This document shows, piece by piece, positions 10,435-49,158 of a DNA stretch of 52,438 nt. Each line of letters starts with the position of its first letter. Position 1 is the first letter of the stretch. This DNA is from a virus. Its lineage: Duplodnaviria > Caudoviricetes. A program made the position numbers and the translations under genes. The notes beneath the pieces are model-generated. The model worked only from the letters and a program-made list of their open reading frames with translations, was not told where the DNA came from and searched no databases. The DNA lies in IMG/VR virus record IMGVR_UViG_3300016656_000038, positions 1 to 52,438 of that record; one strand, 5' to 3'.

Positions 10435-10743
10435 ATGAAGACCGCCGAACTGACCAAATCCGAACGCGCCAAGATGGAAGCCATGTGGGCGTCCCGCGTT
10501 CAACAGCGCGTCGCCGCCTCTAACGCGCTGGTCGCCGCCATCCGCTCCGCCATGATCCGCACGAACTGGAGGGTCAGCGTCGATTATCGAGATGGGAAAG
10601 CGACCGTCGGTCTTTTGGCCTATAACATCCGCGCCGGGAAGCCCGTTGGCTTCGCGACCCACAGGGGCCTTGCGGTCTTTCAGAAGGACGAGACCGACAA
10701 AATCATCGATTTCTTGAACGCCCTCGAAGCCCCGGTCGCCTGA
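10435..10743 (+). CDS. Hypothetical protein
   Basis: RBS and repeated leader upstream. Confidence 0.65.
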   Translation: MKTAELTKSERAKMEAMWASRVQQRVAASNALVAAIRSAMIRTNWRVSVDYRDGKATVGLLAYNIRAGKPVGFATHRGLAVFQKDETDKIIDFLNALEAPVA

Positions 10744-11477
10744 TGCGCGTCGCCGTCTGCATGGAGACCAGCGGTCACGTCCGCGAGGCGTTCCGCCGCT
10801 TGGGTCATTACGCGATCAGCGTCGACTTCCTCCCGTCGCAAGACGGCGGAAACCATCATCAGGGCGACGTCTTCGAGTTCATCGAGAAACGACCGTTCGA
10901 GTTCGATCTGGCGATCTTCCACCCTGAATGCACCTTCCATACGGTTTCGGCCGCTTGGGCCTTCAGGGACCCCGACTTCGAGCGCTATCCGGGCGTCGGC
11001 TATCACATGAAGCTGAAGCCCGGGACGAAGACGGGGGCCGAGCGCCGCGCCGCGCGCCAGCAGGCCGAGGCCGACTTCCTTCGGATCGTGACGGCGCCAG
11101 TCCGCCGGAAGGTCATCGAGAACCCCAAGGGAACGATTCCGACGCGGCTCGGCCTGAAGCCTGACCAGATTGTCCAACCGTATGAGTTTGGCGACGACGC
11201 CAGCAAGGGGACGTGCTTCTGGTATTTCGACGACCAAGGCCAGCGCATCCCCTCGATGCGGCTCCCCATCGACCCGTCGAAGCGCTTTCCGGGCCGCTGG
11301 GTCGAATACCCCAAGGGGTCGGGAAATATGGTCGAGCGCTGGTCGAACCAGACCGACAGCGGCCAGAACAACGTCACGCCCAGCGATAGCCGCTGGCAGC
11401 ATCGAAGCGACACCTATCCCGGGATCGCGGAAGCCATGGCGGCCCACTGGGCCGGCCCCGCCCCCGAGTTCATCTAA
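10743..11477 (+). CDS. Phage C5-cytosine DNA methyltransferase-like protein
   Basis: ETSGHVREAF, HPECT (catalytic Cys), IENP, RSDTYPGIAEAMA. Confidence 0.72.
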   Translation: MRVAVCMETSGHVREAFRRLGHYAISVDFLPSQDGGNHHQGDVFEFIEKRPFEFDLAIFHPECTFHTVSAAWAFRDPDFERYPGVGYHMKLKPGTKTGAERRAARQQAEADFLRIVTAPVRRKVIENPKGTIPTRLGLKPDQIVQPYEFGDDASKGTCFWYFDDQGQRIPSMRLPIDPSKRFPGRWVEYPKGSGNMVERWSNQTDSGQNNVTPSDSRWQHRSDTYPGIAEAMAAHWAGPAPEFI

Positions 11478-11498
11478 GCCTCGCCAAAGGAGAAGCCT

Positions 11499-11906
11499 AT
11501 GCCAACCACACAACCGGCCGAAAAGCCGAAGACCACCCGCCACCGGATAAACGAGGTCCCCGGCCGGACCACCCCGGCGCCGGGCCAGCCCCAGCCGGTC
11601 AAACAGACCCCGGCGGAGAAGCGCGCCCAGCTGGCCGACCTGAAGGCCACCGTGAAGGAGATCGACAAAAAGAAGAAGGTCGATCAGATGATCGAGATGA
11701 TGCGGCGACCCCAAGGGGCCAGCGGCGCCGAACTGGTCGACCTGACGGGCTGGAAGGATCATTCCGTCCGGGCCTTCATCTCCCGGAACCTCAAAGGCCT
11801 GAAGGGCCTCCCCGTCACCCGCAAGAAGGACGGCCTGAACGGCGTCACCGTCTATTCGCTCCCGCCAGCCGATCAGGTCGCGGCCGAAACCGAGGAGTTC
11901 ATCTGA
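11499..11906 (+). CDS. DUF3489 winged-helix protein
   Basis: MMRRPQGAS..EL...TGWKDHSVRAFIS. Confidence 0.75.
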   Translation: MPTTQPAEKPKTTRHRINEVPGRTTPAPGQPQPVKQTPAEKRAQLADLKATVKEIDKKKKVDQMIEMMRRPQGASGAELVDLTGWKDHSVRAFISRNLKGLKGLPVTRKKDGLNGVTVYSLPPADQVAAETEEFI

Positions 11907-12265
11907 TGGGCGAGATCGCAGAGATGCTGCTCGACGGGACGATGGACTTCGAGACCGGCGAGTGGAACTTCGACGGCGCCGACGGTCCGGGCTTCCCCAT
12001 GACGACCAGCCAAGCCAAGGCCTATCGGCTCGGTCAGCGCGATTTCCAAGAGCGCCGCAAGTTTTGGGGAGATTGGATGACCGTCGCCCAGTTCGCGCGC
12101 GATGCGGGCGTCGCCAGCCGAGCCGATCTCCGCAAGGCGATGGGCTGGTCCAGAAAGAAATCCGGGGGGATTATCGCCGCCATGACGAATGCGGACTTCA
12201 TCCGATGCAAGGGCGACACCTTTAGCCTGACGACCAAGGGCGAAAAAACCCTGGAGGCTTCCTGA
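11906..12265 (+). CDS. Hypothetical protein
   Basis: TGATG coupling. Confidence 0.6.
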   Translation: MGEIAEMLLDGTMDFETGEWNFDGADGPGFPMTTSQAKAYRLGQRDFQERRKFWGDWMTVAQFARDAGVASRADLRKAMGWSRKKSGGIIAAMTNADFIRCKGDTFSLTTKGEKTLEAS

Positions 12266-12639
12266 TGGGCCGCCACACGATGACCCCCGAGGACGCCGAC
12301 AACCACGTCTCCGAGTTCGGGACAGGCGGCCGTTCGAACGATGACGCTCACGCGAAGGACGTCGCTCTGATGGTCGCCCAAGGCGCGATCCTGGTCGCCA
12401 TGGCCGACGAACAGCGGGACATCGCCATGGCGGCGACGGAGCGCGCGGGCGAGACGGAGGCCTGGACGGAGAAGTGGCGGACCCAGTCGAACCTCGCGCC
12501 GGCGCTGAAGGCCGAAGCTTGGTTCGATCATCGCGCCACCATCGCGGAGACATACCGGGAGGAGGCCGACATCGCTCGGCGCCGTCAGGCGGCCCTAGAG
12601 GCGGGTGCCAGGGCGCTAGGCGTCATCCTCCCGACCTAG
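12265..12639 (+). CDS. Hypothetical protein
   Basis: TGATG coupling; last gene of the plus-strand block. Confidence 0.6.
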   Translation: MGRHTMTPEDADNHVSEFGTGGRSNDDAHAKDVALMVAQGAILVAMADEQRDIAMAATERAGETEAWTEKWRTQSNLAPALKAEAWFDHRATIAETYREEADIARRRQAALEAGARALGVILPT

Positions 12640-13904
12640 ACCGCCTCGGCCCGGCTCGCCTCGACTTCCGCGAACAGCTGGCCCGTCTCCTCCAGGCGGG
12701 CCTTTTCGCCTGTGAAGGCCTCCCAGCGCTTCACCGTGACGTCCACATAGGCCGGGTCGAGTTCGACCGCGAGGCAGATGCGCTTCGTCATCTGGGCCGC
12801 GATGATCGTCGTCCCCGATCCGCTGAAGGGTTCATAGACGCGGTCGCCCGGCTCGGAGTTGTTCTCGATGGGCCGGCGCATAGCCTCGACCGGCTTCTGG
12901 GTCCCATGGCCGGTGTCGCTCTTGCGGTGATCGATGTCCCAGACGGTCGACTCTTTCCGCGACCCCTGCCAGTGACCCTTCCCGCCCTTGCGGACCACAT
13001 ACCAGCAAGGTTCGTGCTGCCAGTGGAAGTGTCCGCGCCCGATGATCGAGCGCGACTTCCTCCAGATGATCTGCGCGCGCGGCTCGAAGCCGACCGCCTG
13101 AAGGCTCGCCAGGACCTCGGCCGTCGCAAGTCCGCCGTGCCAGATATAGGCGACCTCGCCCGGGAAGAGCGCCCAAGCCTCGCGCCAGTCGGCCTTGTGG
13201 TCGTTCTTGACCAGGCCGCGCTTCACCGTCGGGTCGGAGTTCAGCTTGCGGCCGTCGGCCCGTTCGGCCTGGTTCCGCCATTCGGCGTCGTATTCGACCC
13301 CATAGGGCGGGTCGGAGACCATCAGATGGGGCTTCGTCCCGCGAAGGACCGCCTCGACCACCTTCGGGTCGGTCGAATCCCCGCAGGCCAGCCGGTGATC
13401 GCCCAGAAGCCAAACGTCACCCGCTCGGGATACTGGAGCCGCTGGGGGATCGCCAGCGTCCGCGTCCGCGTCGCGGAGCATCTTCGGGGTCTTGAAGAGG
13501 TCCAGGACCTCCTTTTCGTCGAAGCCGGTCATGTCGAGCGAGAGGCCGGCCTTCTTGAGGTCCAGCATCTCGGTTCGAAGGATGTCCATATCCCAGTCCG
13601 CGTCGAGCGCGATCCGGTTGTCCGCGATGGCGAAGGCTCGCCATTCGTCTTCGCTCAACCCCAAGACGGTGATCGTCGGGATGCGCTCCAGGCCCTCCTC
13701 GATGGCGGCCTCGACGCGACCGTTTCCGGCCCCGATGGTCTCGCCGTCATCCTTCAGGAGGACCGGGTTCCTGAAGCCGAACCGCCGGAAGGCCGTCCGC
13801 AGCTTCTTGATCTGGGAAGCCGGGTGACGGCGGGCGTTGCGCGGGTCTGGGCGGAGGTCGTTCGGGTCCCGATAGACGATTTCTAGATCTGCGAACTGGG
13901 TCAT
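12636..13904 (-). CDS. ParB-N domain / N6-N4 DNA methyltransferase fusion
   Basis: RNARRH..FGFRNPVL..GNGR..ADNR; SDPPY; HGTQKP; EPFSGSGTT. Confidence 0.88.
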   Translation of the reverse strand: MTQFADLEIVYRDPNDLRPDPRNARRHPASQIKKLRTAFRRFGFRNPVLLKDDGETIGAGNGRVEAAIEEGLERIPTITVLGLSEDEWRAFAIADNRIALDADWDMDILRTEMLDLKKAGLSLDMTGFDEKEVLDLFKTPKMLRDADADAGDPPAAPVSRAGDVWLLGDHRLACGDSTDPKVVEAVLRGTKPHLMVSDPPYGVEYDAEWRNQAERADGRKLNSDPTVKRGLVKNDHKADWREAWALFPGEVAYIWHGGLATAEVLASLQAVGFEPRAQIIWRKSRSIIGRGHFHWQHEPCWYVVRKGGKGHWQGSRKESTVWDIDHRKSDTGHGTQKPVEAMRRPIENNSEPGDRVYEPFSGSGTTIIAAQMTKRICLAVELDPAYVDVTVKRWEAFTGEKARLEETGQLFAEVEASRAEAV

Positions 13905-14188
13905 GCGGTCTTCTCGGAGGAGATCAGGGTCAGGCGGGGACGGCCTTCAGGTTCGGCCGGGCGGATTTGCGGATCGACCTCGCCCGTCCCGTCGAGAAGC
14001 GCAAGGGCGTTGCAGATGGCGCGGGCCTGGCCCTGATACATGGCGGCGAGCGCGTCCTGATCTTCCGCCAGCGCGTGATCCCCAACGGCGCGACACCACT
14101 CGGCCTTAGCCTCGCAGCCCACGGCCTCTAGGTTGGCTTGGGCCATCATCTCGGCCAGGACCTCCAAGTCGGCCGCCTCGATCTTCAC
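13901..14188 (-). CDS. Hypothetical protein
   Basis: GTG start coupled to upstream stop (KIEAADLE...). Confidence 0.55.
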   Translation of the reverse strand: MKIEAADLEVLAEMMAQANLEAVGCEAKAEWCRAVGDHALAEDQDALAAMYQGQARAICNALALLDGTGEVDPQIRPAEPEGRPRLTLISSEKTA

Positions 14189-14271
14189 CGGCCGGCGCCT
14201 TCGTAATCGTCCGCCACAAGCGCGACGACCATCTCGCCCAGCGCCTCTAGGATCGCCCGTAACCAGCCCAT
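14185..14271 (-). CDS. 28-aa peptide
   Basis: MGWLRAILEALGEMVVALVADDYEGAGR; coupled on both sides. Confidence 0.45.
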   Translation of the reverse strand: MGWLRAILEALGEMVVALVADDYEGAGR

Positions 14272-15080
14272 CAGATAGCCTCCGGGACGGCCGCAAGAGC
14301 CCGCGCGGCTCTGATTTTTCGGACGTCGTCGGCAGTCTTGTCCTTGTGGCAGGCGTTGCACAAGCCCTGGAGGTTCATCGGCCCCCAATAGCGCCACTGG
14401 TCGGCCGGCGGGATCAGGAGGACCACAAGGGCCAAGGCGAGCGCGTGGTCGACCTCCAGACCAGACGCCCAGCTGATCGAGCAGAACGGTCCGACATAGG
14501 TCGCGGCCGGATAGGCTTTGCGCCAGTATGGGTCCGGCCGGGCGCGGCGCTCGACCGGGTCGACGTCGCCCAGACGCGACCACCGCCCCGAGACCTTTCC
14601 GCATCCGGCGCAACATGGCCCTTGCCGGTGAAGGAGTTCGATCAGCTGCTCGGGCTGGCGCGTGTGGCAGTAAAAGTCCCAGAGACAATCCGGTTCGGTT
14701 CCCTTGCCCGAATGCCAGGTCCGCCGCTTGTCGACCGCATGGCCGTCAGGCCGGAGGATTTCGCCAGCACACCAGGTGCAACGCCCCGGCCGGTCGCCCA
14801 TTTGTTCGTGAACTTTGGCCCATTGGTCGTCCGTCAGGCCCGTTCCGCCGAACCCGTCGACCAGCGCCTTGAACTTGGCCTTCCGGGCCTGCTGGACGTC
14901 GTTCCCGGGGAACTTCCGATAGGAGGACGCCTCGGCCTTCCGATGGCGCTCCCAGCTGGCCTTCCGGTCGCAACGGTCGGGATGGTGAAGGCAGGACCAG
15001 CCGAAGCAATGATCGCCGTGTCCGAGGTTCTTCTGGGGGTTCTTCTTGGCCCAAGCGCAGGGCTTCGTTTCACGCTTCAC
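14271..15080 (-). CDS. HNH-domain protein
   Basis: CAGC...LEVDH...NLQGLCNACHKDKT. Confidence 0.72.
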   Translation of the reverse strand: MKRETKPCAWAKKNPQKNLGHGDHCFGWSCLHHPDRCDRKASWERHRKAEASSYRKFPGNDVQQARKAKFKALVDGFGGTGLTDDQWAKVHEQMGDRPGRCTWCAGEILRPDGHAVDKRRTWHSGKGTEPDCLWDFYCHTRQPEQLIELLHRQGPCCAGCGKVSGRWSRLGDVDPVERRARPDPYWRKAYPAATYVGPFCSISWASGLEVDHALALALVVLLIPPADQWRYWGPMNLQGLCNACHKDKTADDVRKIRAARALAAVPEAI

Positions 15081-15216
15081 GGTCGCGCGCCGTGTCTATG
15101 CACTCCCCGCGACAACGCGGACACCGGACGGGCTCGGCCGGGCGTCCCATCTGGGCCTCTCGGACGACAACCCCGGCGCCGTGGCATTGCCGGCAGAGCG
15201 GGTTAGGCTTTTTCAC
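15070..15216 (-). CDS. 48-aa DnaJ-type zinc-finger peptide (not in ORF track)
   Basis: (M)KKPNPLCRQCHGAG...CPRCRGEC; fills the gap between neighbours. Confidence 0.55.
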   Translation of the reverse strand: MKKPNPLCRQCHGAGVVVREAQMGRPAEPVRCPRCRGECIDTARDREA

Positions 15217-15454
15217 GCGGGACGATCTTAATCTTCGCCTCAACCCGGCGGGTCTTCATAACCCCAGAGGGGGTGCGCTCGATCTTCCCGGCCTTGTCCC
15301 GGACGGCCTGAACGAACCAACCGTTGAAGGCGTCGGCCTCGACGACGTCAGGGATCACGCGGCCGCCGGCGGCGCGCTTAACAACCAGGTCGCGCCAGTT
15401 CTTCGGCGCCCCGTTGGAGCCCGCGCGGACGTATAGGACGGGCTTGTCGGTCAT
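15203..15454 (-). CDS. Hypothetical protein
   Basis: MTDKPVLYVRAG start with ATGA coupling. Confidence 0.6.
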   Translation of the reverse strand: MTDKPVLYVRAGSNGAPKNWRDLVVKRAAGGRVIPDVVEADAFNGWFVQAVRDKAGKIERTPSGVMKTRRVEAKIKIVPREKA

Positions 15455-15531
15455 AGGAAAGCGCCGATCAGTCGAACCGTCTTGGCGAACCATTGGAAGC
15501 CGACGTGCGCGAAGTAGAAGACATAGCCCAT
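15451..15531 (-). CDS. 26-aa peptide
   Basis: MGYVFYFAHVGFQWFAKTVRLIGAFL; TGATG and ATGA coupling. Confidence 0.45.
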   Translation of the reverse strand: MGYVFYFAHVGFQWFAKTVRLIGAFL

Positions 15532-16280
15532 CAGATGGCCTCCTCGACTTCCTCGACCAGCGGCGGCGGCGCGCTGATCTGGGGAAGCGGCTCCTCCCCG
15601 CTGGCGATCCGGCGAAGACGCTCGGCCATGGCCTGCTTTGTCTCGCCCGGCGGGCCGACGCGGCGCGACTGGTCGGTCTTGAAGTTCAGGATGACCTTCC
15701 CGTCCGCGTCCAGGATACCGGCGGCCTTGGCGGCCTCGACGTCGGCCCGGCGTTGCTCCTCGGTCTTCGGCGGCGGGTTATCCTCGACGAACGCGGCCGC
15801 CCGCTTGGCCCGATAGGAGGCCATCCATAGTTCCTTCGCGTAGGGCTCGGCCCGCTGGAACAGCTGCTCCGGCTTGGGATAGAACCCGCTCCCGTCGCGC
15901 CCCCAGATGACGAAAGCCTCCCGGATCGCCTCGATGGGGAGAGGGGCCAGAGCGCGCAGATAGATCGAGAAGAGGGCCTGATACTCGCCCGGCGACTTGT
16001 TCCCGAGGCCGTAAACCGACGAATGCTCGACCAGCAGGCCCATGATGTCGACCGGATCGGCCCGGGCGGCGCGCGCCTCTAGGTCGGCCGCGACCTCGAC
16101 CGCCTTGTCCTTCAGCTTGGGGACCCGGGCGATCTGGCGAACGACTTCATCGGCCTTCGCGCTGGAATCCGTTAAGCGCGCCCAGAGCGCCGTCCCGCAT
16201 AGCGTCGATGCGTTCGCCGCGAGATGCTGGCCCCCGACCAGTTCCAAGCCCGGAGCCGTATTGGTTAGAGCGGTAGTCAT
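15531..16280 (-). CDS. Putative helicase loader (lambda P-like position)
   Basis: Follows the initiator gene; IREAF..W..FYPKP motif. Confidence 0.45.
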   Translation of the reverse strand: MTTALTNTAPGLELVGGQHLAANASTLCGTALWARLTDSSAKADEVVRQIARVPKLKDKAVEVAADLEARAARADPVDIMGLLVEHSSVYGLGNKSPGEYQALFSIYLRALAPLPIEAIREAFVIWGRDGSGFYPKPEQLFQRAEPYAKELWMASYRAKRAAAFVEDNPPPKTEEQRRADVEAAKAAGILDADGKVILNFKTDQSRRVGPPGETKQAMAERLRRIASGEEPLPQISAPPPLVEEVEEAI

Positions 16281-16866
16281 TGGACCGTCCTTTCAGGTCG
16301 TCATTGTGGGTTCGAAGCCAACGGTGGAACGCACGATCAAAGTCAGTTTTCCCGGCGGCGAACTCCCACTCGCGGAAGCGGGCCAGCTGCTCCTCGAATA
16401 TACCATCGGGCCAGCCGAACGCCGATACCTTCTCCCGATGGGCGTCCTTCGGCTCCCAGTCATCCGGGACCAGATGCATTTTCCCTCGCGCTTTAGGAGA
16501 GGGGGAGGATTGACGGTTAGATGATGGTTTGGGCGAACGTGCTTCCCCCCCGCCCGAAGCCCATTCGGGCGAAGCATCTTCGGGGGACGAATATCCTTCG
16601 GGTCTGATTTTGTAGATCACGCCTCGACCGGGCTTAGGGTCTCGCGTCAGATGGCCGGCCGTTTCCAGACGGGTGATCGCCATGCTGACGGTTCGGTCGG
16701 TCAAGCTGGTTTTCTTGACCAGGTCCGCCTTGTCGGATCGCTTCGACGTGATCGCTATCCAAGTCACGCCCGCGTCGTTGGCGGCGTCCGCCAGGGCGAG
16801 CAGGACCATTTTGTCGGTCGAATGAAGGTCCATCATCCAGACGTGGGTCATCAGTCGAATGCTCAT
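16147..16866 (-). CDS. Replication initiator (N-terminal winged HTH)
   Basis: KMVLLALADAANDAG..LVKKTSLTDRTV..AITRLE..G; C-terminal DFDRAFHRW. Confidence 0.7.
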   Translation of the reverse strand: MSIRLMTHVWMMDLHSTDKMVLLALADAANDAGVTWIAITSKRSDKADLVKKTSLTDRTVSMAITRLETAGHLTRDPKPGRGVIYKIRPEGYSSPEDASPEWASGGGEARSPKPSSNRQSSPSPKARGKMHLVPDDWEPKDAHREKVSAFGWPDGIFEEQLARFREWEFAAGKTDFDRAFHRWLRTHNDDLKGRSNDYRSNQYGSGLGTGRGPASRGERIDAMRDGALGALNGFQREGR

Positions 16867-17123
16867 TTGGCGATGATCCTTGTCTCGGTTCTCTGGCCCG
16901 GGTTGACCTTCCTCTCGATCATCCCGCGTTCGACCAGGACCTTGAGGCCACCTTGGAGGCCGCGCTCGGACATTCCCGTCGCCTTCATCAGTTCCGGCAA
17001 AGTGGCGTAGGAGATGCCGACCGGACCAGCGAAGCGCGACAGGGCAAGAAACGCCATCTTGCCCGCGACGGTCGGGATGCGCGGCAAGAGGCGCCACGCG
17101 AGGTCTTCGTGATAACGGTTCAT
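16863..17123 (-). CDS. Small winged-HTH protein
   Basis: LPELMKATGMSERGLQGGLKVLVERGMI; alternative start at 17141. Confidence 0.7.
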   Translation of the reverse strand: MNRYHEDLAWRLLPRIPTVAGKMAFLALSRFAGPVGISYATLPELMKATGMSERGLQGGLKVLVERGMIERKVNPGQRTETRIIAK

Positions 17124-17182
17124 CCTCTTGCGCTCCCCCATCGGGTCGGCATATGGATTCGGCAGGCCTGGCGGCAGTTCAT

Positions 17183-17298
17183 GGGTTTGGTCTCGATCAA
17201 GTTCCGCCCATCGGACGGTCAGAGTTTAGGGGCTGGCGACCTTTGGCGAGGCGCCAGCCCCGTTTGTTTCAGTCCTATGCGTCGACGGGGTCCGTCAA
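17183..17298 (-). promoter_or_regulatory. Replication-gene promoter/leader with CGCCAA hairpin
   Basis: TTGACG on the minus strand, hairpin GGGGCTGGCG-CCT-CGCCAA-AGG-T-CGCCAGCCCC at 17229-17261, GATCGAGAC at 17190-17198. Confidence 0.6.
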
Positions 17299-17302
17299 GC
17301 GC

Positions 17303-17971
17303 TTAGAACATGGAAGGCTGGCGAGCGTCGTCCTGACGGTCCAGCGTCCGAAGAAGCGTCTCCCCCTGGTGTTTCTTGTCCCAGATGAACCAGCCGTTCA
17401 GCATGGGCGGCGAGCCCTGGCCGGTGAAGTCGATCTTCCAGCGCATGATGTAGGCGCGCGCCGGCGGGTGTTTGGCCCAGAAGGGACCCAGCCCTCCAGC
17501 GCCCGGCCAAGTCCAGTTCAGCAAGAGGGCCATATAGTCGAGGTCGAGGACGTCGAGGGCGTGATAGAGCCATCGGGCCTTCCCGTTCCCCCATCCGCAC
17601 TGATCGAAAGGCGGGTTCTGGATGGTCGCGCGCGCCGGCGCCTCGGTGAAGTCATAGAAGCTTCTGATCTCGGCGCCGACGCCCCGGTCGACCAGGTCGG
17701 ACGAATAGGTCTTCAGGCCGACGGCCTGCATCTCCCGAACCAGCGCGTTATCGCCGCAGCTACCATCCCAGATGCAGTCGAAGTCCCGAAGGCGATCCAT
17801 CTCCGCCCGGAGAAGCGCGCGGATTGGCTCTGGCGGGGTTGGATAGAACTCGTCTTTCTCGCGCTCCAGGCCCTCGGGGTCCTTCACATAGGAGCCGTCG
17901 AGAAGGCGGCGCGCGACCGGCTTCCGGCGCTTGCCGGTTGCCCTGAAGAGGCCAGAGGCGGAGGCGGTCAT
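17303..17971 (-). CDS. Amino (N6-adenine-type) DNA methyltransferase
   Basis: EFYPTP, WDGSCGD (SAM binding), IQNPPF. Confidence 0.78.
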   Translation of the reverse strand: MTASASGLFRATGKRRKPVARRLLDGSYVKDPEGLEREKDEFYPTPPEPIRALLRAEMDRLRDFDCIWDGSCGDNALVREMQAVGLKTYSSDLVDRGVGAEIRSFYDFTEAPARATIQNPPFDQCGWGNGKARWLYHALDVLDLDYMALLLNWTWPGAGGLGPFWAKHPPARAYIMRWKIDFTGQGSPPMLNGWFIWDKKHQGETLLRTLDRQDDARQPSMF

Positions 17972-18666
17972 ATGGCTTCCTGAAGATGGGCCATCAGCTG
18001 GGCGCCGACGTGGCGCGTATAGGCCGGCGGAACCGCCTCGCTGATCTCGCCCATGCTGGCCCACGGCATCCCCATCAGCTGACGGGCCAAGGCGGGACGA
18101 TCTTCGCCTGGGAAGTCCACCGTCCGCCCCGTTCCCTTGCCGGTTCGATAGTCGCCGCCGCGCGCCCGAAGGTGTCCCCCATAGACGTTCGCGATGGGAT
18201 AGCGGGCGCCCGGATCATCTGGCGCCTGAAGCGGGAAGTTCGTTTCGAACAGCCGCTCGCGCGATAGGTCGAACCGCTGGCCCCGCGACGTCACCAGATG
18301 GCAATCGAACATCGTCCCGAAGAGCGAGACCGGATCGATCAGTTCGTCGCGCGCCCCCCGGACGTTCTCGATCACATACGGCAGGCCCGAGGCCTTCAGA
18401 AGAGCCCGCGTCTGGGGGATCAGGTTAAGCCATCGGCTCTTGTCGTTGTTCATCTCGGTTAAGCCCTGGCAGGGCGGCGACGCGTGAACGGCGTCGAACA
18501 TCCGAAGGAACTCCAGCGGCAGGGCCAAAACGTCCGCGACGATCAGCGGATGGGGGTTCCGGCGGTGCTGGACCAAATCGACGCCCATCACGTCGAAGCC
18601 GGCCTGACGATAGCCCTCGCCGGCGCCGCCGGCGCAAGCGAAGAGGTCGAGGATGCGAGGGCTCAT
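17968..18666 (-). CDS. C5-cytosine DNA methyltransferase
   Basis: LDLFACAGG, ASPPCQ, IENV, EAVPP. Confidence 0.85.
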   Translation of the reverse strand: MSPRILDLFACAGGAGEGYRQAGFDVMGVDLVQHRRNPHPLIVADVLALPLEFLRMFDAVHASPPCQGLTEMNNDKSRWLNLIPQTRALLKASGLPYVIENVRGARDELIDPVSLFGTMFDCHLVTSRGQRFDLSRERLFETNFPLQAPDDPGARYPIANVYGGHLRARGGDYRTGKGTGRTVDFPGEDRPALARQLMGMPWASMGEISEAVPPAYTRHVGAQLMAHLQEAI

Positions 18667-18863
18667 TTGCGAAGGTCCCAGAGGACCGAAAGCGCGATCT
18701 GGCGCGCGACATTCGTCCAGTATCGGCTAGGCGTCGACGACCCGCCCAGCCGCGCCCAGCTGGCGAGGTCCCGGTTTGCGGCGGTATCGAAGCCCCCCAT
18801 GATCCGGGCGGCGCGTTCCGGGCCGTGACACCACGCGAGGCGCCGATGAAGTTCGTCGTTCAT
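18663..18863 (-). CDS. Hypothetical protein
   Basis: ATGA coupling on both sides. Confidence 0.55.
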   Translation of the reverse strand: MNDELHRRLAWCHGPERAARIMGGFDTAANRDLASWARLGGSSTPSRYWTNVARQIALSVLWDLRK

Positions 18864-19402
18864 AGAAGGCCCCCTCGGCCCTTACTCCAGATGATGCGGT
18901 CCCACCGTTCGTTTTGGCGGGGGTTGAGTTCGCGGATGCCGATCTTCCAGCCGGCGAAAGCGTCGGCCGCGTCTTCTTGGCCTTCCTTCTTCGTCGGAGG
19001 GAGATCGATCCCGCAGAGAAGTGCGACCTCGACCATGTCGGCCTTGCTGGCGTCGTGACGGCCCGTCAGTTCCTTCTTCAGGTCGCGAAGGTCCTTCTCG
19101 AAGGTCGGGATTTCGTGACGCGCCGCGACCGTCTCCAGGATCACCCCGAGGCCATAGATTTTCCTGATCTTCAGCAGCGTGTCGGTCGGGGTCAGGATCG
19201 GGCTTTCGTAACCGATCGATGTCGGCCGGAAGGTCGCGATGTGGGTCTCGACCCAGCGCTCGAAGAAGAGGCCCATCGCCCCCAGGTCCTCGCCAAAGTC
19301 GGGGATGCGGAAGGCCCCGCAGACGGGACGGGTCTCGCCCGTCCCGCTGCAAAAGCCGGTCAGCCCTGGCGCGAGGTCAAAGAAGCTGACCTGGTCGACC
19401 AT
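18860..19402 (-). CDS. RuvC-like Holliday junction resolvase
   Basis: FDLAPGLTG, GYESP, KKELTG...ASKADM, DAADA. Confidence 0.75.
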   Translation of the reverse strand: MVDQVSFFDLAPGLTGFCSGTGETRPVCGAFRIPDFGEDLGAMGLFFERWVETHIATFRPTSIGYESPILTPTDTLLKIRKIYGLGVILETVAARHEIPTFEKDLRDLKKELTGRHDASKADMVEVALLCGIDLPPTKKEGQEDAADAFAGWKIGIRELNPRQNERWDRIIWSKGRGGLL

Positions 19403-20154
19403 CAGACCGCCTCGGCGCCGTCGTCGTCGCCGCTCGGGTCGGACCCCTCGATGGTCGACGGGCGCGACGTCTGGGCCGCCAGTTCGTCGGCCGTGGCCTC
19501 GAAGTCATCCCGGGTTTGCTCGGGCTCGACCGAAGGCGGCACCGCCATGGAAGGACCTTCCGGCTTGGGCTTCTTGTCCGGCGCCAGGCTCCAGGCGTTC
19601 ATCTCCTGGCCGCGATCATATTCCTGCATCCAAGGTTGCCAGAACCGTTCGGGGACGCCCGCCTCCTTCGGGTCGCGCTTGTCCGCCCGAAGGCCGGCCG
19701 TGTAGCCGTGACCGCGCCAGTCCAGTTCGTCCTTCGCGGCTTCCGGCATCCGGTCGAGGAGATCGCCTTGGGTTCCGACAGGCAGGCCCAGATATTCGCG
19801 GAAGCGCGTCCGACGCTCTTCGACCTCGCGGAGGTCCTTTCGGGTCCCCTTGACCGCGCTGTCCTTCAGGAGGTCGCGGATTTCGCCCTTCTTGAAGCCG
19901 GCCGCCTGGGCCTGGTCGAGGATCGAGTTAACGGCGTCGCGCTTTTCCTTCACGACGGCTTGCGCCTTCTCGACCTCCGCCTGGGCGGTCCGCATCTTCG
20001 CCATCACGGATAGAAGCTGGGCCTGTTCGGCCTCGCGGATGGCCTCTAGGTTGTTCTTCGGGGCGCCGTCATCTTTCCGCCCGGTCTCGGTCGGGGGCGG
20101 GGAGTGAAGGTCCCGGATTTTGTCGCTTTGCGACTTTGGCTTTCGTCCCGCCAT
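19402..20154 (-). CDS. Protein with a GapR/DUF2312-like segment
   Basis: Coiled coil then AQAAGFKKGEIRDLLK...YLGL; acidic tail. Confidence 0.5.
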   Translation of the reverse strand: MAGRKPKSQSDKIRDLHSPPPTETGRKDDGAPKNNLEAIREAEQAQLLSVMAKMRTAQAEVEKAQAVVKEKRDAVNSILDQAQAAGFKKGEIRDLLKDSAVKGTRKDLREVEERRTRFREYLGLPVGTQGDLLDRMPEAAKDELDWRGHGYTAGLRADKRDPKEAGVPERFWQPWMQEYDRGQEMNAWSLAPDKKPKPEGPSMAVPPSVEPEQTRDDFEATADELAAQTSRPSTIEGSDPSGDDDGAEAV

Positions 20155-20205
20155 CGGGTCGGTCTCCTGGGCGCCGCAGGGCCGGGGGCGCCATCCGGTA
20201 TCCCG

Positions 20206-20631
20206 TCAGGGATTGGTCGATCCGATCTCTTTCAAAGCCTTTTCGGCCGCTCGGATGATAACGGTCTGCGCATCGATCTTCTTCTGGACCAGAAGCCTTG
20301 AAGCCTCGAACCGGACCAGCTTTATCCGGGCGGCCGCGATCTCTTGGCGCAGTTTCTGAACCTTCTCCCGTTGATACGGATCAACGCTGAATGAGGACTC
20401 CGGGGAAGCGCTGATCCGTCTAAGAGCCGCCTCGACGAAGGGGATCGCTTTCATGGGGATCGCGTCACGATAGGCCCACATGCGGACGCGGACGTCGCTC
20501 ACTGGAAAGCCGACGTCGGTTAAATCGCGAGCCATGGCGGCGCGAGAGGGCCATTTGGAGAAGACCCTGGCGAAGGTCTCTTTTGTCTCGATCATGGGCT
20601 GCAAACTGGTTCGGGCCGTTACGTCCGTCAA
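20206..20631 (-). CDS. Cro-like HTH regulator
   Basis: SRAAMARDL..VSDVRVRMWAYRDAIP; first gene left of the divergent promoter. Confidence 0.6.
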   Translation of the reverse strand: MTDVTARTSLQPMIETKETFARVFSKWPSRAAMARDLTDVGFPVSDVRVRMWAYRDAIPMKAIPFVEAALRRISASPESSFSVDPYQREKVQKLRQEIAAARIKLVRFEASRLLVQKKIDAQTVIIRAAEKALKEIGSTNP

Positions 20632-20729
20632 GCACGATTTTTCCGTCTTGCGGTGTAACGCGATGCATGGCTTATAGTCTGGCTATCGAGACCACCCAGC
20701 GCCGGCGCCAACCGGCAGGAGAACCCCAG
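20632..20729. promoter_or_regulatory. Divergent promoter region with leader copy
   Basis: AT-richer gap; TTGCGG and TATAGT; ATCGAGAC at 20685; GCCGG-CGCCAA-CCGGC at 20701-20716; AGGAG. Confidence 0.65.
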
Positions 20730-20966
20730 ATGACAGACACCCCCGCCGCCCCTTCGGCCGAGCAACAAGCCGATGTCGGCCGCGTCGACGTTCCCGGTGC
20801 CGTCCGCGACGTCATTGTGACGATCCGCGCCCGCGCGCTCCGGCTGGACCGGACGCTGAACGCCCATTGGACGTCGCTCGAAAAGCGCAACGCGGCCGAA
20901 GAGGAACTTCTGGTTCTGGCCGAAGACGCCCTGTCGGCCCATCGGCTCCTCCGGTCGCTCCGTTGA
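20730..20966 (+). CDS. Hypothetical protein
   Basis: AGGAG RBS; MTDTPAAP. Confidence 0.65.
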   Translation: MTDTPAAPSAEQQADVGRVDVPGAVRDVIVTIRARALRLDRTLNAHWTSLEKRNAAEEELLVLAEDALSAHRLLRSLR

Positions 20967-21130
20967 GCCCGCCGCGCGAACCCCAGTCGGCCGAGGAGGT
21001 CCTTTCGGTCCTCGCGATGGCCGCCGGAGGCCTGAAGCGCCTCCAGACCGCAACCCCGCAGGAGGTCGCTCGCCTCCGCATCCTGATCGCAGACTTGGAC
21101 CGCCAGATGGTCCTTAAATGGAGGGCCTGA
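20963..21130 (+). CDS. Hypothetical protein
   Basis: TTGA overlap with upstream stop. Confidence 0.5.
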   Translation: MSPPREPQSAEEVLSVLAMAAGGLKRLQTATPQEVARLRILIADLDRQMVLKWRA

Positions 21131-21381
21131 TGGCCGAAGAAGAGTATCGATTGGCGGTTAATCCCGGCTTTCAGGTTGGCGACAAAGTCATCCCCGACAC
21201 CTTGGCGCGCGATAATGACGGGTCGCTGATTATTCTAACCGGACGCGGTGAGAAATCCCGTCGCGCTCTAATCATCCCTCGGGTCATTCGCCTGAAGCGC
21301 GGCGCTCCATACGACACGCCAGACCCCGAACAAGAACGTCTGGCGCGCAATATCCTCAACCTGTTGAACGGGAAAGCCTGA
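21130..21381 (+). CDS. Hypothetical protein
   Basis: TGATG coupling. Confidence 0.55.
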   Translation: MAEEEYRLAVNPGFQVGDKVIPDTLARDNDGSLIILTGRGEKSRRALIIPRVIRLKRGAPYDTPDPEQERLARNILNLLNGKA

Positions 21382-22679
21382 TGGCCGACAAGACCTATCG
21401 CATCGTCGAACTTCAGGCGGAGAACTTCAAACGCCTGAAGGCCGTCTCTATCCGGCCGGACGCTGACGTCGTCGAGATCACCGGCCGCAACGGGCAGGGG
21501 AAGACCTCGATCCTCGACGCCATTCTGGGCGGACTGGGCGGCGGCCGGGCGCTTCCGATGAAGCCGATCCGCGCCGGGCAGGAGAGCGCCGTCATCCGCT
21601 TGGACCTTGGCGACCTGAAGGTGACGCGCCGGTTCAAGACCAGCGAGACGAACGCCAAGGGCTGGACGACCGACGTCATCGTCGAGAGCGAGATGGGCGG
21701 CCGCTTCCAGAAACCGCAGGACGTCCTCGACGCGCTGGTCGGGGAGTTCACCTTCGACCCGCTCGGCTTCACCCGCCTGAAGGAGGACGAACAGTTCGAG
21801 GCCCTGAAGGCGTTCGTCCCCGACTTCCAGTTCGAGGAGTCCGCCGGTCTGGACCGGACCGACTTCGCCACGCGGACCGAGGTCAACCGTGACGCCAAGG
21901 CTCTGCGCGCGCAGGCCGAGGCGATCACCCTTCCGGCCGGCAAGGTCCCGGCGGCCGTCGACGTCGCGGCCCTGGAGGCGAAACTGGCCGAGGCCGGGAC
22001 CCATAACGCCAGCATCGCCCAACGGAAGGCGCGGCGGGAACAGGTCGACGAACGCATCTCCCAGCTGAACGCGGAGATCGAGCGCCTTCAGGCCGAACTC
22101 GCCGGTCTGGAGGAGGCCAAGGCGCAGGCCGAACCGCTCCCCGAACCCATCGACACCGCCCAAGTTCAGGAAGCCCTCGCGGCTGGCCGCGCGGCGAATG
22201 CCGTCCGGGAGCAGGCCGCGCGCCGCGACGCGCTGAACGCCCAAGCGGCCGCGAAGGAGGCCGAATCCGCCAAGCTGACTAAGGCCATGGAGGACCGCGA
22301 GGCCGCCCGTCAGGCCGCGATCAAGGCGGCGAAGATGCCCGTCCCCGGATTGGGCTTCGACCCGGCCGGGTTTATCACCCTGAACGGCCAACCCTTCAGT
22401 CAGGCCAGCGACGCGGAGCAGCTGCGCGCGAGCATCGCCATCGCGGCCGCCAAGAACCCCCAGCTTCGCATCGCTCGCGTTCGGGACGGTTCGCTCCTCG
22501 ATGACGTCGCGATGGTCGAACTTAAGCGGTTTGCGGCCGAGAACGACCTTCAGGTCTGGATCGAGCGCGTCGACTCCTCGGGGACCGTCGGCTTCGTCCT
22601 GGAGGACGGCGAACTGAAGGACGACGACTGGGGCGAGCGCGTCGCGGCGCCTGTCGACGACGGCGAGGAGGCGATCTGA
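21381..22679 (+). CDS. SMC/SbcC-like AAA ATPase
   Basis: ENFKRL, GRNGQGKTS Walker A, coiled coil, SDAEQ signature, RDGSLLD. Confidence 0.85.
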   Translation: MADKTYRIVELQAENFKRLKAVSIRPDADVVEITGRNGQGKTSILDAILGGLGGGRALPMKPIRAGQESAVIRLDLGDLKVTRRFKTSETNAKGWTTDVIVESEMGGRFQKPQDVLDALVGEFTFDPLGFTRLKEDEQFEALKAFVPDFQFEESAGLDRTDFATRTEVNRDAKALRAQAEAITLPAGKVPAAVDVAALEAKLAEAGTHNASIAQRKARREQVDERISQLNAEIERLQAELAGLEEAKAQAEPLPEPIDTAQVQEALAAGRAANAVREQAARRDALNAQAAAKEAESAKLTKAMEDREAARQAAIKAAKMPVPGLGFDPAGFITLNGQPFSQASDAEQLRASIAIAAAKNPQLRIARVRDGSLLDDVAMVELKRFAAENDLQVWIERVDSSGTVGFVLEDGELKDDDWGERVAAPVDDGEEAI

Positions 22680-22933
22680 TGGCCTATTCCATTCGGACCT
22701 ATGAGATCACGCAGAACCAAGGCGCCTTTCCCGGGCCAGCGCCCGAGGGGGAGCGGTTCGTCGCTATCATCAGGCGCGGACCGAACCTTGCATCCTTCAC
22801 GTTCGCCGCGACCGAGGAGGAAGCGGAGGGGAAGGCCGAGGCCTTCGTCGCCGCGAACCCTGAACCCGAGCCGCGCAAACCGCGCGCGCCGAAAACCACC
22901 ACCCCAGCCGAAGAGATCGAGGAAGCGATTTGA
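22679..22933 (+). CDS. Hypothetical protein
   Basis: Coupled on both sides. Confidence 0.6.
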   Translation: MAYSIRTYEITQNQGAFPGPAPEGERFVAIIRRGPNLASFTFAATEEEAEGKAEAFVAANPEPEPRKPRAPKTTTPAEEIEEAI

Positions 22934-24000
22934 CCGACCTAGCCCCACACCTGACCGTCATCCCTTGGGACGGGAAACCGATCTCCCAGCCGGGAATCTA
23001 TTCCGGGATACCGATGTCGGCTTATCACTCGGCCGCGATCTGTGACGGCCCCAGCGTCTCCTCCTCGATCCTTCGCAAGGTCGAAGAGTTGCAGGACATG
23101 AGCAAGGTCTTCGACAAGCACTGGCCCGGGAACCCAGACCGCGAGCCGGAGCCCGAGAAGGAGGCCTATATCAAGGGCCGCGCCCGTCACACGCTGCTGC
23201 TGGGCGAAGAGGGCTTCCGCGAGGAGTTCCTGATCCGCCCGGAAACCTACCCGGACGGCGCGACCTATCCGAGCGAGGTCGGGACGCAGAAGCCGTGGCA
23301 TGGTGGGGCCAAGTGGTGCAAGGCCTGGATGGCCGCCGCCGCCCTGGCCGGGAAGTCGGTCCTGAAGGCTGACGAACTCCCGAACATTCGCGGCGCGGCC
23401 GAGCGGCTGGCGGCCCATCCGGCAATCCAAGCCGGCCTGCTGAACGGTCTTATCGAACATTCGATCTTCTATCGGGACCAGAAGACGGGCCTGTGGGTCA
23501 AGGTTCGCCCGGACTCCATCCCGACCTCGGGGACGATGGTCGCTGACTACAAGGGGACCGACAGCGTCCACCCCCAGAAGGTCCGCAAGGCGATAACCGA
23601 GTTCGGCTATCATCAGCAGCTTGCGTTGATCGCGGACGCCTTCTTCGAGGTCGCCGGGATCACGCTCGGGATCGATGACCACGTTCTGGTCTTCCAAGAG
23701 TGGAACCGCCCTTGGTCGATCAACAACAAGCCCCTGACCCCAACGGCGATCTATCGCGGCCGCCAGCAGAACCGCCGGGCGCTCGACCGGATCGCTGAAT
23801 GCATCCAGACCGGCGTCTGGCCCGGCCCAGATGACGACATGGTCCCGGCCGACCTTCAGGACTTCCGCGAAAAGCAGCTGAAGTTCGAAGAAGAGCATGG
23901 TCTGCTCCCCGAGGTCGAGGAGCCGAACGCCTCGCCTCGCCAACCCTCTGCCGCCTCCCAAGCGATCCGCGCCCAAGCGGACGCCGAAGAAGCGATCTAA
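22930..24000 (+). CDS. RecE/exonuclease VIII-like PD-(D/E)XK nuclease (DUF3799)
   Basis: YH...SVSSS, KVRPD, ADYK, FGYHQQ. Confidence 0.82.
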   Translation: MTDLAPHLTVIPWDGKPISQPGIYSGIPMSAYHSAAICDGPSVSSSILRKVEELQDMSKVFDKHWPGNPDREPEPEKEAYIKGRARHTLLLGEEGFREEFLIRPETYPDGATYPSEVGTQKPWHGGAKWCKAWMAAAALAGKSVLKADELPNIRGAAERLAAHPAIQAGLLNGLIEHSIFYRDQKTGLWVKVRPDSIPTSGTMVADYKGTDSVHPQKVRKAITEFGYHQQLALIADAFFEVAGITLGIDDHVLVFQEWNRPWSINNKPLTPTAIYRGRQQNRRALDRIAECIQTGVWPGPDDDMVPADLQDFREKQLKFEEEHGLLPEVEEPNASPRQPSAASQAIRAQADAEEAI

Positions 24001-24033
24001 CCCAGCCCCTCAACCCCAAAGGCAAATCTTAAC

Positions 24034-29686: not shown

Positions 29687-29763
29687 TGGGTGCGGGGGGG
29701 AGATTTGAACTCCCGACCTTCGGGTTATGAACCCAACGCGCTACCGAACTGCGCTACCCCGCC
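29687..29763 (-). tRNA. tRNA-Met(CAT), initiator-like
   Basis: 77-nt cloverleaf, anticodon loop UUCAUAA, three G-C pairs in the anticodon stem, 1:72 mismatch, encoded CCA. Confidence 0.9.
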
Positions 29764-46254: not shown

Positions 46255-46320
46255 GGGGCTTAGGGGTCTCCAAAGTAAAAGCCGGCGGGATTGCCGGATC
46301 GCCTCGAAGTCCCCCTGGTT

Positions 46321-46782: not shown

Positions 46783-46785
46783 GGA

Positions 46786-47046
46786 TCAGCCCTTCGTCTT
46801 CGTGTCGCCAGCCGGGGCTTCGGCGGGCTTGCGGTCGACGACCTGACCGGACTTGTCGGTCCCCTTGTCGGCCGGCGCCGGGACTTCCTCGGCCGCATTG
46901 GCTTCGAGAAGTTGCTTCAGCTGGTCGGTCGTCACCGGGACGGGTTCATCGCTGGCGACGAAGTCCGCCTCCGACATCGGCTTTCCCGCCTTCGACCGCT
47001 TCAGGGTAACGGTGTGGTTCTTCAGGATTTTGGCCCATTTGGTCAC
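46786..47046 (-). CDS. Hypothetical virion-region protein
   Basis: Coupled ORF in the neck cluster. Confidence 0.55.
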   Translation of the reverse strand: MTKWAKILKNHTVTLKRSKAGKPMSEADFVASDEPVPVTTDQLKQLLEANAAEEVPAPADKGTDKSGQVVDRKPAEAPAGDTKTKG

Positions 47047-47465
47047 GTCTGCGCTCCTTTTCTTGCTACGCGCGCGACTGCTTTTCTCACGAGTTCGGTC
47101 GCGGCGCTACGCTCCTTCCGGGCGGCCGGTCCCATGAATGGGCGCGCGGCCATCTTCGAGGTTCCCAGTTCGAGCGCCGCCGAATAGGGCGCATTCGACG
47201 TCACCTTGACCTTCATGTTCTTGCGGTCGCCGGTCGTTTCGATGCTGGTATCCAGAAGCCGGGTGTCCGCGTTGGGGGGCTCTCCGGGCGCGCTGGGGAC
47301 GTGGTTCTTACCCGAGACCGACCCGGACGTGATCGAGAGTTCGGCCGCGATCTCGATCCGGTTCCCAGCCGCGAACAGAGCCTTGAAGATTTCGTCTTCC
47401 ATCTCCCGGCTGGTCAGGCGGCCCAAGAGATCGCTATGGGCCTTCGCGCCGGTGATCTTCGCCAT
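47043..47465 (-). CDS. HK97 gp10-like neck protein
   Basis: SAPGEPPNADT..YSAALELGTSKMAARPFMGPA. Confidence 0.85.
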   Translation of the reverse strand: MAKITGAKAHSDLLGRLTSREMEDEIFKALFAAGNRIEIAAELSITSGSVSGKNHVPSAPGEPPNADTRLLDTSIETTGDRKNMKVKVTSNAPYSAALELGTSKMAARPFMGPAARKERSAATELVRKAVARVARKGAQT

Positions 47466-47884
47466 CAGGGTTCCTCGGGCTGTTCCGGCGCGGGAGGGAC
47501 GATCTCGGCCTCGATGGGCGTCCCCCGGAAGGTCCAGGCGGCCATCGCGGGGTCTTGGGCGATGGGAGCCGCGACCCTATGGGTCTGGCCCCGCAAGTTG
47601 CAGACGTCGCCCTCGACCGGCTCCGGGATGGGCTCGCCGGTTGGCGTCAGCTGCAACATGACGATCTGAACGTCGCGGTTCCCATAGCCGTTCGACCGCA
47701 TCCGGTCGGTCACGGTCTCATAGAACGCCTTGCAGTCCAGGGCGGGCGGTCGCTGGCCCTGGATGATCCGCCCCCGGTCGTCGCGGGTCTGGGCGGTGAT
47801 CTGACGCTGGAACTTGCCCGTCAGGAGGATGGCCCCGAAGGCCCCAAGGGCGACGCGCTGGAGACCGCCGTCGAGGAGCCCCAT
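47465..47884 (-). CDS. Head-closure protein
   Basis: Position; QDPAMAAW motif. Confidence 0.6.
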   Translation of the reverse strand: MGLLDGGLQRVALGAFGAILLTGKFQRQITAQTRDDRGRIIQGQRPPALDCKAFYETVTDRMRSNGYGNRDVQIVMLQLTPTGEPIPEPVEGDVCNLRGQTHRVAAPIAQDPAMAAWTFRGTPIEAEIVPPAPEQPEEP

Positions 47885-48366
47885 CAGCCGTTCCCCTGCC
47901 AGGCGGACGCCAGACCAGGCAGACGGGGGACGTCTCGGGCGTTCGGGTTCGTCAGAGCGTCGGCGCCGCCGCCAGTGACCAGCGGACCGCCCGCGAAGCG
48001 CGCCGCGATGGCGAGGAACCGCTGGCCGTAGGTCGTCGAGTTCAGCCCGTCGAGGAAGGCGTTCCCGGTCCGGGATGCATCGCTCTTGTCGAACTGGGAG
48101 AGCGACAGGGAACCCAGCTTGATCGACTGGAAGTTCCCCACGCCTTCCGCGTTCAGCTGGGCCTCGGTTCCCGCCCCGATCCCGTCCAGCGTCAGGACGT
48201 GCGCCGCGTAAAGCATCCGCCCCATGGCGAAGTCACCCTCGGGCCAGCTTTCGTCGACGACGCGCGCGGCTTCGTCGAGACCCTGCTGGAGGACGGATTC
48301 GTCAACGGCGGCGAACTTCGGGAAGCGCGCCTTCATCTGGGCGGGGGTCGGGGGGGAATAGGCCAT
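47884..48366 (-). CDS. Head-tail adaptor (DUF4054-like)
   Basis: RFPKF..LYAAHVL..TTYGQRF. Confidence 0.8.
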   Translation of the reverse strand: MAYSPPTPAQMKARFPKFAAVDESVLQQGLDEAARVVDESWPEGDFAMGRMLYAAHVLTLDGIGAGTEAQLNAEGVGNFQSIKLGSLSLSQFDKSDASRTGNAFLDGLNSTTYGQRFLAIAARFAGGPLVTGGGADALTNPNARDVPRLPGLASAWQGNG

Positions 48367-48369
48367 GGG

Positions 48370-49158
48370 TTAGACTGCCTCGCCGGTGTCGGCCTCGCGG
48401 GCCTTCTTCAAGAGGGTTTCGCGCTTGGCGTTCGGATGGGGTTCCTTCCCGGTCTGGGCCAGGATGAACTTCCGCAGGGCCGCATCGTCCATGTCGTCGA
48501 AGTGGTCCTTCCGGTCGCCGTCAGCACCGACCCCGGGGGCCTGCTGGGACTGGTTTTCGCCGGTCTGGTCGGTCGTTTCAGCACCGGCCGCGCCGCCCGG
48601 CTTCAGGTCGCCGTCCGGGTCGAACTTGGCGAACGGCTCGAAGGCGGCCTCGATGGCGTCAAGGACCAGCTGGACGTCGGAGAAGTTCTGGATGTCGAAC
48701 GCCTTCAGGACCTTCTCGACGAACGGGCCGACCGTGTAGGTCTTGGTTTCGTCGTCTCCCTCGCGGGCCTCGGCTTCCTTGGTCAACCGATCGATCTCTT
48801 CGGCCTGGCGCTGGATGGTCTCCTCGCGGTTCTCCAGGTCGGCCTTGATGCTCTCCAGAGCCTTGTCGACGGCTTCCTGGATGCCCTCGCCGGAGATCGC
48901 GACGGTCTGCGTCTTGGGGCTCTCGCCATTCTGGGCCGGCGCGTCCGATCCGGTCGGAAGAGCGATCTCGCCCATGTCCTCCAGTTCGACCTCGGGCTTA
49001 TCGCCCATCGCCATCTTCTGGAGCAGCTGGAAGACGTTGTCCGCGACCTCCAAGGTCTCGGTCTGGCCGCGCGCGAGGGTCGTCGGGTCCTTCTTGCCTA
49101 GTTCAGGCCAGCCTCTCGGCCCAAGCGCCAGATTGGTAACTGATACGCGCCTTCCCAT
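48370..49158 (-). CDS. Hypothetical acidic protein after MCP
   Basis: AAGGAG RBS; C-terminal small helical domain (LRKFI..GKEPHPNAKRETL). Confidence 0.65.
   Translation of the reverse strand: MGRRVSVTNLALGPRGWPELGKKDPTTLARGQTETLEVADNVFQLLQKMAMGDKPEVELEDMGEIALPTGSDAPAQNGESPKTQTVAISGEGIQEAVDKALESIKADLENREETIQRQAEEIDRLTKEAEAREGDDETKTYTVGPFVEKVLKAFDIQNFSDVQLVLDAIEAAFEPFAKFDPDGDLKPGGAAGAETTDQTGENQSQQAPGVGADGDRKDHFDDMDDAALRKFILAQTGKEPHPNAKRETLLKKAREADTGEAV

Follow-up and report, generated by a model that had tools for sequence, protein, structure and literature searches.

Eleven proteins of one phage share a C-terminal E-[AF]-[IV] ending: a candidate peptide tag written in the codons of a translational coupling signal

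Introduction

Why should eleven unrelated proteins of a single phage all end in glutamate, then alanine or phenylalanine, then isoleucine or valine? This question is raised by the phage contig IMGVR_UViG_3300016656_000038, a 52,438-bp assembly with a G+C content of 63–71% that was analysed in its entirety (the window). A preliminary description of this DNA, made from the letters alone, had listed eleven C-termini of the form E-[AF]-[IV]-stop, and their positions, residues, codons and stop codons were all as it stated (Table 1). The analysis reported here reveals that this tail is strongly enriched, restricted to a clade, retained at genes that are not coupled to a following gene, and limited to isoleucine or valine at its last position. 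We favour the reading that the tail is a peptide tag on early DNA-handling proteins whose codons are shared with a coupling signal, to which we give a probability of about one half.

Results

Enrichment of the tail

Genes were called heuristically with a codon-likelihood caller trained on long open reading frames (ORFs) of high-GC loci. Eleven of the 75 genes called in the window end in E-[AF]-[IV], compared with 0.086 predicted from composition alone. Inside the window proteins the same tripeptide occupies 26 of 15,964 positions; at this frequency the binomial P for at least 11 of 75 is ~1e-18. Terminal isoleucine or valine occurs in 11 genes of the window, all with glutamate at position −3 (2 × 2 counts 11/7/0/57; Fisher test, 6e-9).

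Among 120 control phage-like loci processed with the same caller, the tail was found in two of 1,981 de-duplicated genes (Fisher test of window versus controls, 5e-15); these loci were fetched by homology to the RecE-like or AAA protein and do not form a random sample. Further controls run through this caller gave one of 183 genes in nine bacterial loci and none of 549 genes in 33 more loci, and none of the 83 annotated coding sequences of Aminobacter phage Erebus carries the tail, even under a looser pattern. Chance and amino-acid composition could be thought to suffice, as the motif was defined after the data had been seen and high-GC genomes are rich in A, E and V. However, this explanation is refuted by the control counts and the P values, and near orthologues in the three families searched show the tail again (see below), so that it retains almost no probability.

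Overlap with the start of the next gene

Eight of the eleven tails are coupled, with the next start no more than 6 nt away (Table 1), and all eight of these starts have a GAGG or AGGAA Shine–Dalgarno-like site 5–10 nt upstream. The codons GAG-GCN set GAGG 7–8 nt ahead of an overlapping ATG, and GAG is the glutamate codon in all five TGATG tails. TGATG junctions of the control loci have glutamate at −3 in 58 of 185 cases, 23 of these 58 with alanine at −2. Because GAGG gives E-A and the TGATG junctions of the controls lean in this direction too, glutamate at −3 and alanine at −2 are largely a footprint of coupling. A passage in Weber et al. (2020; PMC7246954) describes NNA-TGA overlaps that shape the last codon. 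The tails thus far resemble ordinary translationally coupled junctions (TGATG or ATGA with an intragenic Shine–Dalgarno site), on which eight of the eleven lie with GAGG 7–8 nt before the start; they differ from them in that control phages give E-A-A or assorted ends rather than isoleucine or valine, and in that a coupled partner is lacking for three of the tails.

The final isoleucine or valine is the part that coupling leaves unexplained. The commonest ending in the controls is E-A-A (53 of 1,981 genes and 17 of 185 TGATG junctions), and only 10 of the 58 control TGATG junctions with glutamate at −3 end in isoleucine or valine. When junctions are divided by class, the tail stands at 6 of 37 overlapping junctions in the window versus 1 of 785 in the controls; in the far plus convergent class it stands at 4 of 26 by the classes of the script (three without the tail at 15531, which has TGATG) versus 0 of 719. 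For the three uncoupled tails (11477, 24000 and 12636) the binomial probability of at least 3 of 26 is 1e-5. The first of these lies 21 nt from a start that is preceded by its own AAAGGAG site; the second lacks GAGG and is separated by a 33-nt spacer from the RecT-like gene; the third is convergent with the plus-strand gene 12265–12639, the two stops overlapping in CTAG, and has no same-strand downstream gene. The view of the preliminary description that Shine–Dalgarno overlap accounts for some tails only, and not for these three, which have no nearby downstream start, is borne out, and with genes split by coupling, as it proposed, an excess over the control phages is left in both the overlap class and the far/convergent class.

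Codon choice was also informative. The NTGA overlaps at 17968 and 22933 force the gene to end in A or T, and isoleucine is kept there by means of the rare codons ATA (2.3% of isoleucine codons) and ATT (6.6%); at the other NTGA junctions of the window the last residue is G, Q, R, A, L, M, T or E. The codons follow need while the tail peptide stays constant.

The junction GAGGCSRTCTGATG is matched in 58 of 401 sampled alphaproteobacterial genomes, with at most two copies per genome, and has three copies in the 52-kb phage; a reversed control pattern gave five matches in the 401-genome table. A host-wide junction habit was rejected for these 401 evenly sampled genomes and is on the whole unlikely. 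A methylation site (GATC or GANTC in the tail) was rejected as well, GATC being present in some tails only.

Another ending stands out in the control loci (L001–L121). Alanine is the last residue of 497 of their 1,981 called genes, and x-A-A endings occur far above expectation (EAA 53; VAA, AAA and RAA 21 each), which holds also for TGATG junctions, whose last codon is not set by the start. The x-A-A endings in high-GC phage-like loci may represent a second, broader tail habit.

Conservation of the tail in relatives

Protein searches for orthologues covered three families, all from uncoupled genes: the RecE-like exonuclease, the ParB-like methyltransferase and methyltransferase 10743. Among RecE-like orthologues, 7 of 9 at ≥60% identity, 9 of 22 at 50–60% and 4 of 83 at 40–50% carry the strict tail, behind a linker that cannot be aligned. 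ParB-like methyltransferases at ≥60% identity carry it in 3 of 8 cases under the strict and 5 of 8 under the loose pattern; at 50–60% identity one of 112 is strict, 11 are loose (EVV, EVI, DVV) and 41 end in x-A-A. Orthologues of methyltransferase 10743 end in EFI at 99% identity, LEAI at 83% and GDFV at 66%, followed by 0 of 110. Conservation in orthologues, which the preliminary description had named as a check, is therefore partial: near orthologues in the three families hold [DE]-hydrophobic-[IV] though their linkers diverge, and distant ones are without the tail.

In a maximum-likelihood tree of the RecE-like family (66 rows, last 35 residues removed), tail carriers fall in one broad clade. 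The last residue swaps between isoleucine and valine at least seven times, and the whole tail shows seven gains or losses. Nowhere among the 66 rows is E-A followed by a residue other than isoleucine or valine, and the sisters P0010 (GEAV) and P0013 (GQTA) have none of the three tail residues in common. Since the swaps are confined to isoleucine and valine and the other changes involve the whole tail, the last position is constrained and the three positions act as a unit.

The close relatives with DNA are short IMG/VR fragments only (L131, L132, L224 and L232). In L132 the orthologue of the 48370 protein still reads DTGEAV despite two synonymous changes, and the ORF that follows it is a different one. 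Both tails of L224, on the orthologues of 14271 and 15531, are retained, and the 15531 orthologue is followed by an ORF of 40 codons, which in turn is coupled by ATGA to the gene after it. L232 (84–94% nucleotide identity) retains EFI, EFI and AEAV, and its AEAV methyltransferase is still convergent. A megablast of 24 kb of the phage against 50,697 phage records returned a sole, tRNA-like match of 43 nt, and scans with single proteins found remote relatives or none. In viral, metagenome and genome collections, profile scans with the RecE-like protein found relatives no closer than 54% identity, all of them without the tail, and the profile scan with the ParB-like methyltransferase likewise found distant relatives, none with the tail.

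The last 30 residues of the tailed proteins contain 3–11 acidic residues, with acid exceeding base in nine of eleven. An AlphaFold2 model of the RecE-like protein has a mean predicted local distance difference test (pLDDT) score of 89.7 and is confident to about residue 322; the score is ~74–80 at residues 331–350 and 55 for the last six, and a helix is predicted at 341–354.

Gene exchange at the junctions

Gene content was compared between relatives at the stop/start junctions. L232 carries an extra gene for a 132-aa protein (9161–9559) placed at the TGATG in which the DUF3489 gene ends (window 11906). Contigs of four sequencing runs were also compared with positions 10700–24100, using, among the best-supported variants, only indels that are exact to a junction. 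The contigs of three runs are without gene 21118–21381, which is flanked by two GCCTGATGGCCGA junctions, and in the relative contig X7 (one run) module replacements start at 11909 and at 17967. These comparisons show that stop/start junctions are the exact points at which this phage group exchanges gene cassettes. Long DNA repeats were sought at the junctions, and none was longer than the motif.

A relative contig of ~90% identity has the second half of the split methyltransferase (17298–17967) swapped for 715 other bases. Short contigs in two isolate-type sequencing runs ("organism A") are ~98–99% identical to parts of 14200–24100, which hints at a cultured host or lysogen.

The eleven carriers and their surroundings

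The head module of the phage encodes portal, large terminase and major capsid proteins, and in its capsid protein it is closest, among named phages, to Aminobacter phage Erebus and Rhizobium phages (47–48% identity). Its early module encodes several DNA methyltransferases, an HNH endonuclease, an SbcC-like ATPase, a RecE-like PD-(D/E)XK exonuclease, a RecT-like protein and a DUF3489 protein. Ten of the carriers are early proteins and one belongs to the head module. The functions first assigned to them held for the DNA methyltransferases (10743, 12636 and 17968), DUF3489, HNH, AAA/SbcC-like and RecE-like/DUF3799 proteins; the proteins labelled "P-like" (15531) and "GapR-like" (19402) matched no named family.

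Table 1. The eleven E-[AF]-[IV] tails of the window, with their codons and their relation to the next gene.
Carrier	Position of tail	Strand	Codons	Residues	Junction
DNA methyltransferase 10743–11477	11466–11477	+	GAG TTC ATC TAA	E-F-I	uncoupled
DUF3489 protein	11895–11906	+	GAG TTC ATC TGA	E-F-I	TGATG overlap with gene 11906–12265
ParB-like N6 DNA methyltransferase	12636–12647	−	GAG GCG GTC TAG	E-A-V	uncoupled
HNH endonuclease	14271–14282	−	GAG GCT ATC TGA	E-A-I	TGATG overlap with 28-aa ORF
249-aa protein (no named family)	15531–15542	−	GAG GCC ATC TGA	E-A-I	TGATG opens 26-aa ORF
Split DNA methyltransferase, N-terminal half	17968–17979	−	GAA GCC ATA TGA	E-A-I	ATGA overlap with C-terminal half 17303–17971
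250-aa protein (phrog_26995, unknown function)	19402–19413	−	GAG GCG GTC TGA	E-A-V	TGATG overlap with RuvC-like gene 18860–19402
AAA_23/SbcC-like ATPase	22668–22679	+	GAG GCG ATC TGA	E-A-I	TGATG overlap with gene 22679–22933
84-aa protein (no family)	22922–22933	+	GAA GCG ATT TGA	E-A-I	TTGA overlap with TTG start of RecE-like gene
RecE-like PD-(D/E)XK exonuclease	23989–24000	+	GAA GCG ATC TAA, preceded by GAA	E-A-I	uncoupled
262-aa protein after major capsid gene	48370–48381	−	GAG GCA GTC TAA	E-A-V	next ATG 3 nt past stop (TAA-CCC-ATG)

The methyltransferase at 17968 is encoded as two polypeptides, 17968–18666 (−) matching the first part of phrog_363 and 17303–17971 matching the later part of phrog_799. 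The partners of the tails at 15531 and 14271 are mini-ORFs of only 26 and 28 codons (15454–15531 and 14185–14271, both −); both begin MG[YW], and the product of 15454–15531 is hydrophobic. A 162-aa protein with a trypsin-like peptidase domain (PF13365, E 1.7e-7) is encoded at 7410–7898 (+) in the early region. A 45-nt intergenic element occurs twice, at 7377–7421 and 10402–10446 (80% identity), and ends in AGGAGATCGAGAC and the ATG of genes 7410 and 10435; it is probably a shared promoter/ribosome-binding-site cassette. A tRNA-Met gene (29687–29763, −) lies between two convergent gene blocks, with 41–43 nt 98% identical to cyanophage PSS2 records.

Several short words are missing from the window. 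The 6-bp palindromes CCGCGG, GGGCCC, GGATCC, TCCGGA, TGGCCA, CTCGAG, GATATC and ACCGGT are absent, compared with 35–150 copies of each expected under an order-2 model, which suggests restriction-site avoidance. GAGGTG/CACCTC is likewise absent on both strands, yet GAGGT is present 137 times.

Discussion

In the favoured reading, the final codons of many early genes (GAG-GCN-ATC/GTC-stop) would provide the GAGG site, the spacer and the overlapping stop/start for the next gene, and the encoded [D/E]-[A/V/F]-[I/V]-COOH, often placed after an acidic stretch, would itself be held constant in the phage clade. Such a peptide would serve as a recognition tag on the methyltransferases, the HNH endonuclease, the SbcC-like ATPase and the RecE-like exonuclease. 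Its likeliest readers would be a host protease or adaptor that sets the lifetime of the carriers, or a docking partner common to them. A narrower version, which we put forward more tentatively than the tag itself, is that one clade has one reader, either an AAA+ protease or adaptor that times removal or a docking hub, for a three-residue [D/E]-hydrophobic-[I/V]-COOH address on unrelated early proteins; the putative cohort would comprise three methyltransferase polypeptides, the HNH endonuclease, the SbcC-like ATPase, the RecE-like exonuclease, the DUF3489 protein and others, with the same bases starting the next gene. The interpretation in the preliminary description is supported in part; its docking tag, degron or anti-degron would be candidate functions of the tail. 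Our guess ranks a turnover tag for early enzymes first and a docking tail of the SSB/T7 gp2.5 type second. Turnover is the most economical guess because passages of Weber et al. (2020; PMC7246954) report a depletion of V, I, L, M, Y and W at C-termini over 1,582 genomes and faster degradation of hydrophobic ends in Mycoplasma pneumoniae.

Comparison with known C-terminal tails gives partial likenesses. The phage tail resembles degradation tags in placing a short non-polar extreme C-terminus (A/F, then I/V) on unrelated proteins. Degradation tags of this kind are the ssrA ending ...LAA and the C-terminal ClpX signal of MuA; neither is known to have glutamate at −3, whereas the phage tail does. 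Acidic docking tails include the tip of bacterial SSB and the tails of T7 gp2.5 and gp4, which bind T7 DNA polymerase; they end in an aromatic phenylalanine and have known partners, and in T7 more than one protein has this type of tail. Somewhat like these, the phage tail is often an acidic run with a hydrophobic end on proteins of DNA metabolism, at the end of a lower-confidence segment in the RecE-like model; it differs in ending in isoleucine or valine, in being a motif of 3–4 residues and in having 11 unrelated carriers. The pattern [DE]-x-hydrophobic-COOH is also that of class III PDZ ligands.

Several observations weigh against a peptide tag. Most of the tails are followed by a start within a few nucleotides, and E-A is exactly what GAGG yields. 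Val GTC and Ile ATC are the default codons in any case (73% and 91%), and in the coupled genes a last codon [AG]TC prolongs complementarity to the 3′ tail of 16S rRNA past the anti-Shine–Dalgarno sequence (A-U or G·U), which leaves room for an RNA-level reading of their isoleucine or valine. As to a reader, neither a PDZ nor a TPR family was found in the 20 window proteins scanned against Pfam (75 called; host not scanned), and the peptidase at 7410–7898 is without a PDZ domain. Several RecE-like subclades have lost the tail, DNA of tail-bearing orthologues was compared for L132, L224 and L232 only, the capsid-module tail at 48370 lies within a 60-residue block that is conserved anyway, and the gene inserted at a tail junction in L232 ends in QRGRG.

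In a purely RNA-level reading, the whole tail would be the initiation signal of the next gene, with a GAGG core followed by G-Y-G-R-U-C that extends pairing with the 16S rRNA 3′ tail, and with the uncoupled tails as relics. The coupling of 8 of 11 tails and the GAG codon in all five TGATG cases agree with this, R-U-C is matched by Ile AUC and Val GUC alone, and control TGATG junctions with glutamate at −3 end in valine in 9 of 58 cases, slightly above the 6.5% valine content. A perfect complement of the 16S tail would read E-V-I; E-V-V or E-V-I are frequent ends of ParB-methyltransferase orthologues, and the absence of GAGGTG from both strands of the window could explain alanine (GCG) in place of valine (GTG). 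The 16S rRNA 3′ tail is near-universal, yet no such habit appears in control phages or in the 401 alphaproteobacterial genomes. Moreover, only 5 of 11 tails have a −2 codon that ends in G, and TTC, GCC, GCT and GCA are used as well; ATA and ATT violate R-U-C yet preserve isoleucine; the orthologue tails D-F-V and D-V-V are without GAGG; RTC is not found at −5 to −3 of non-overlapping starts in the window; and pairing up to 2 nt from the start codon would be sterically doubtful. With three tails uncoupled, one of them still so in L232, we regard a purely RNA-level origin as rather unlikely.

A further account is that recombination at short shared junctions copies an ancestral adaptor (GAGGCGATCTGATG) onto new genes, the peptide being functionless. 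Gene gain and loss is located exactly at stop/start junctions, and the tails of the adjacent genes ending at 11477 and 11906 are identical over the 10 bases up to the stop codon (GAGTTCATCT). However, no repeat beyond the motif itself was found at junctions, the codons of the tail vary as much as codon usage permits, and the gene inserted in L232 did not gain the tail. A neutral last codon should also drift, yet only toggling between isoleucine and valine is seen over the RecE-like tree, where path lengths are near 1 change per site. Hitchhiking of this kind seems to us improbable, and we return to the peptide tag, with codons shared between tag and coupling signal, as the favoured reading.

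If the peptide is read, the phage would possess a compact, transferable tag that lets it control a whole set of early enzymes, and the same dozen bases would hold two selected messages, one being a protein tag and the other the signal that starts translation. For annotation, shared C-termini in compact phage genomes should be taken neither as ribosome-binding sites nor as a protein motif until coupled and uncoupled genes have been separated.

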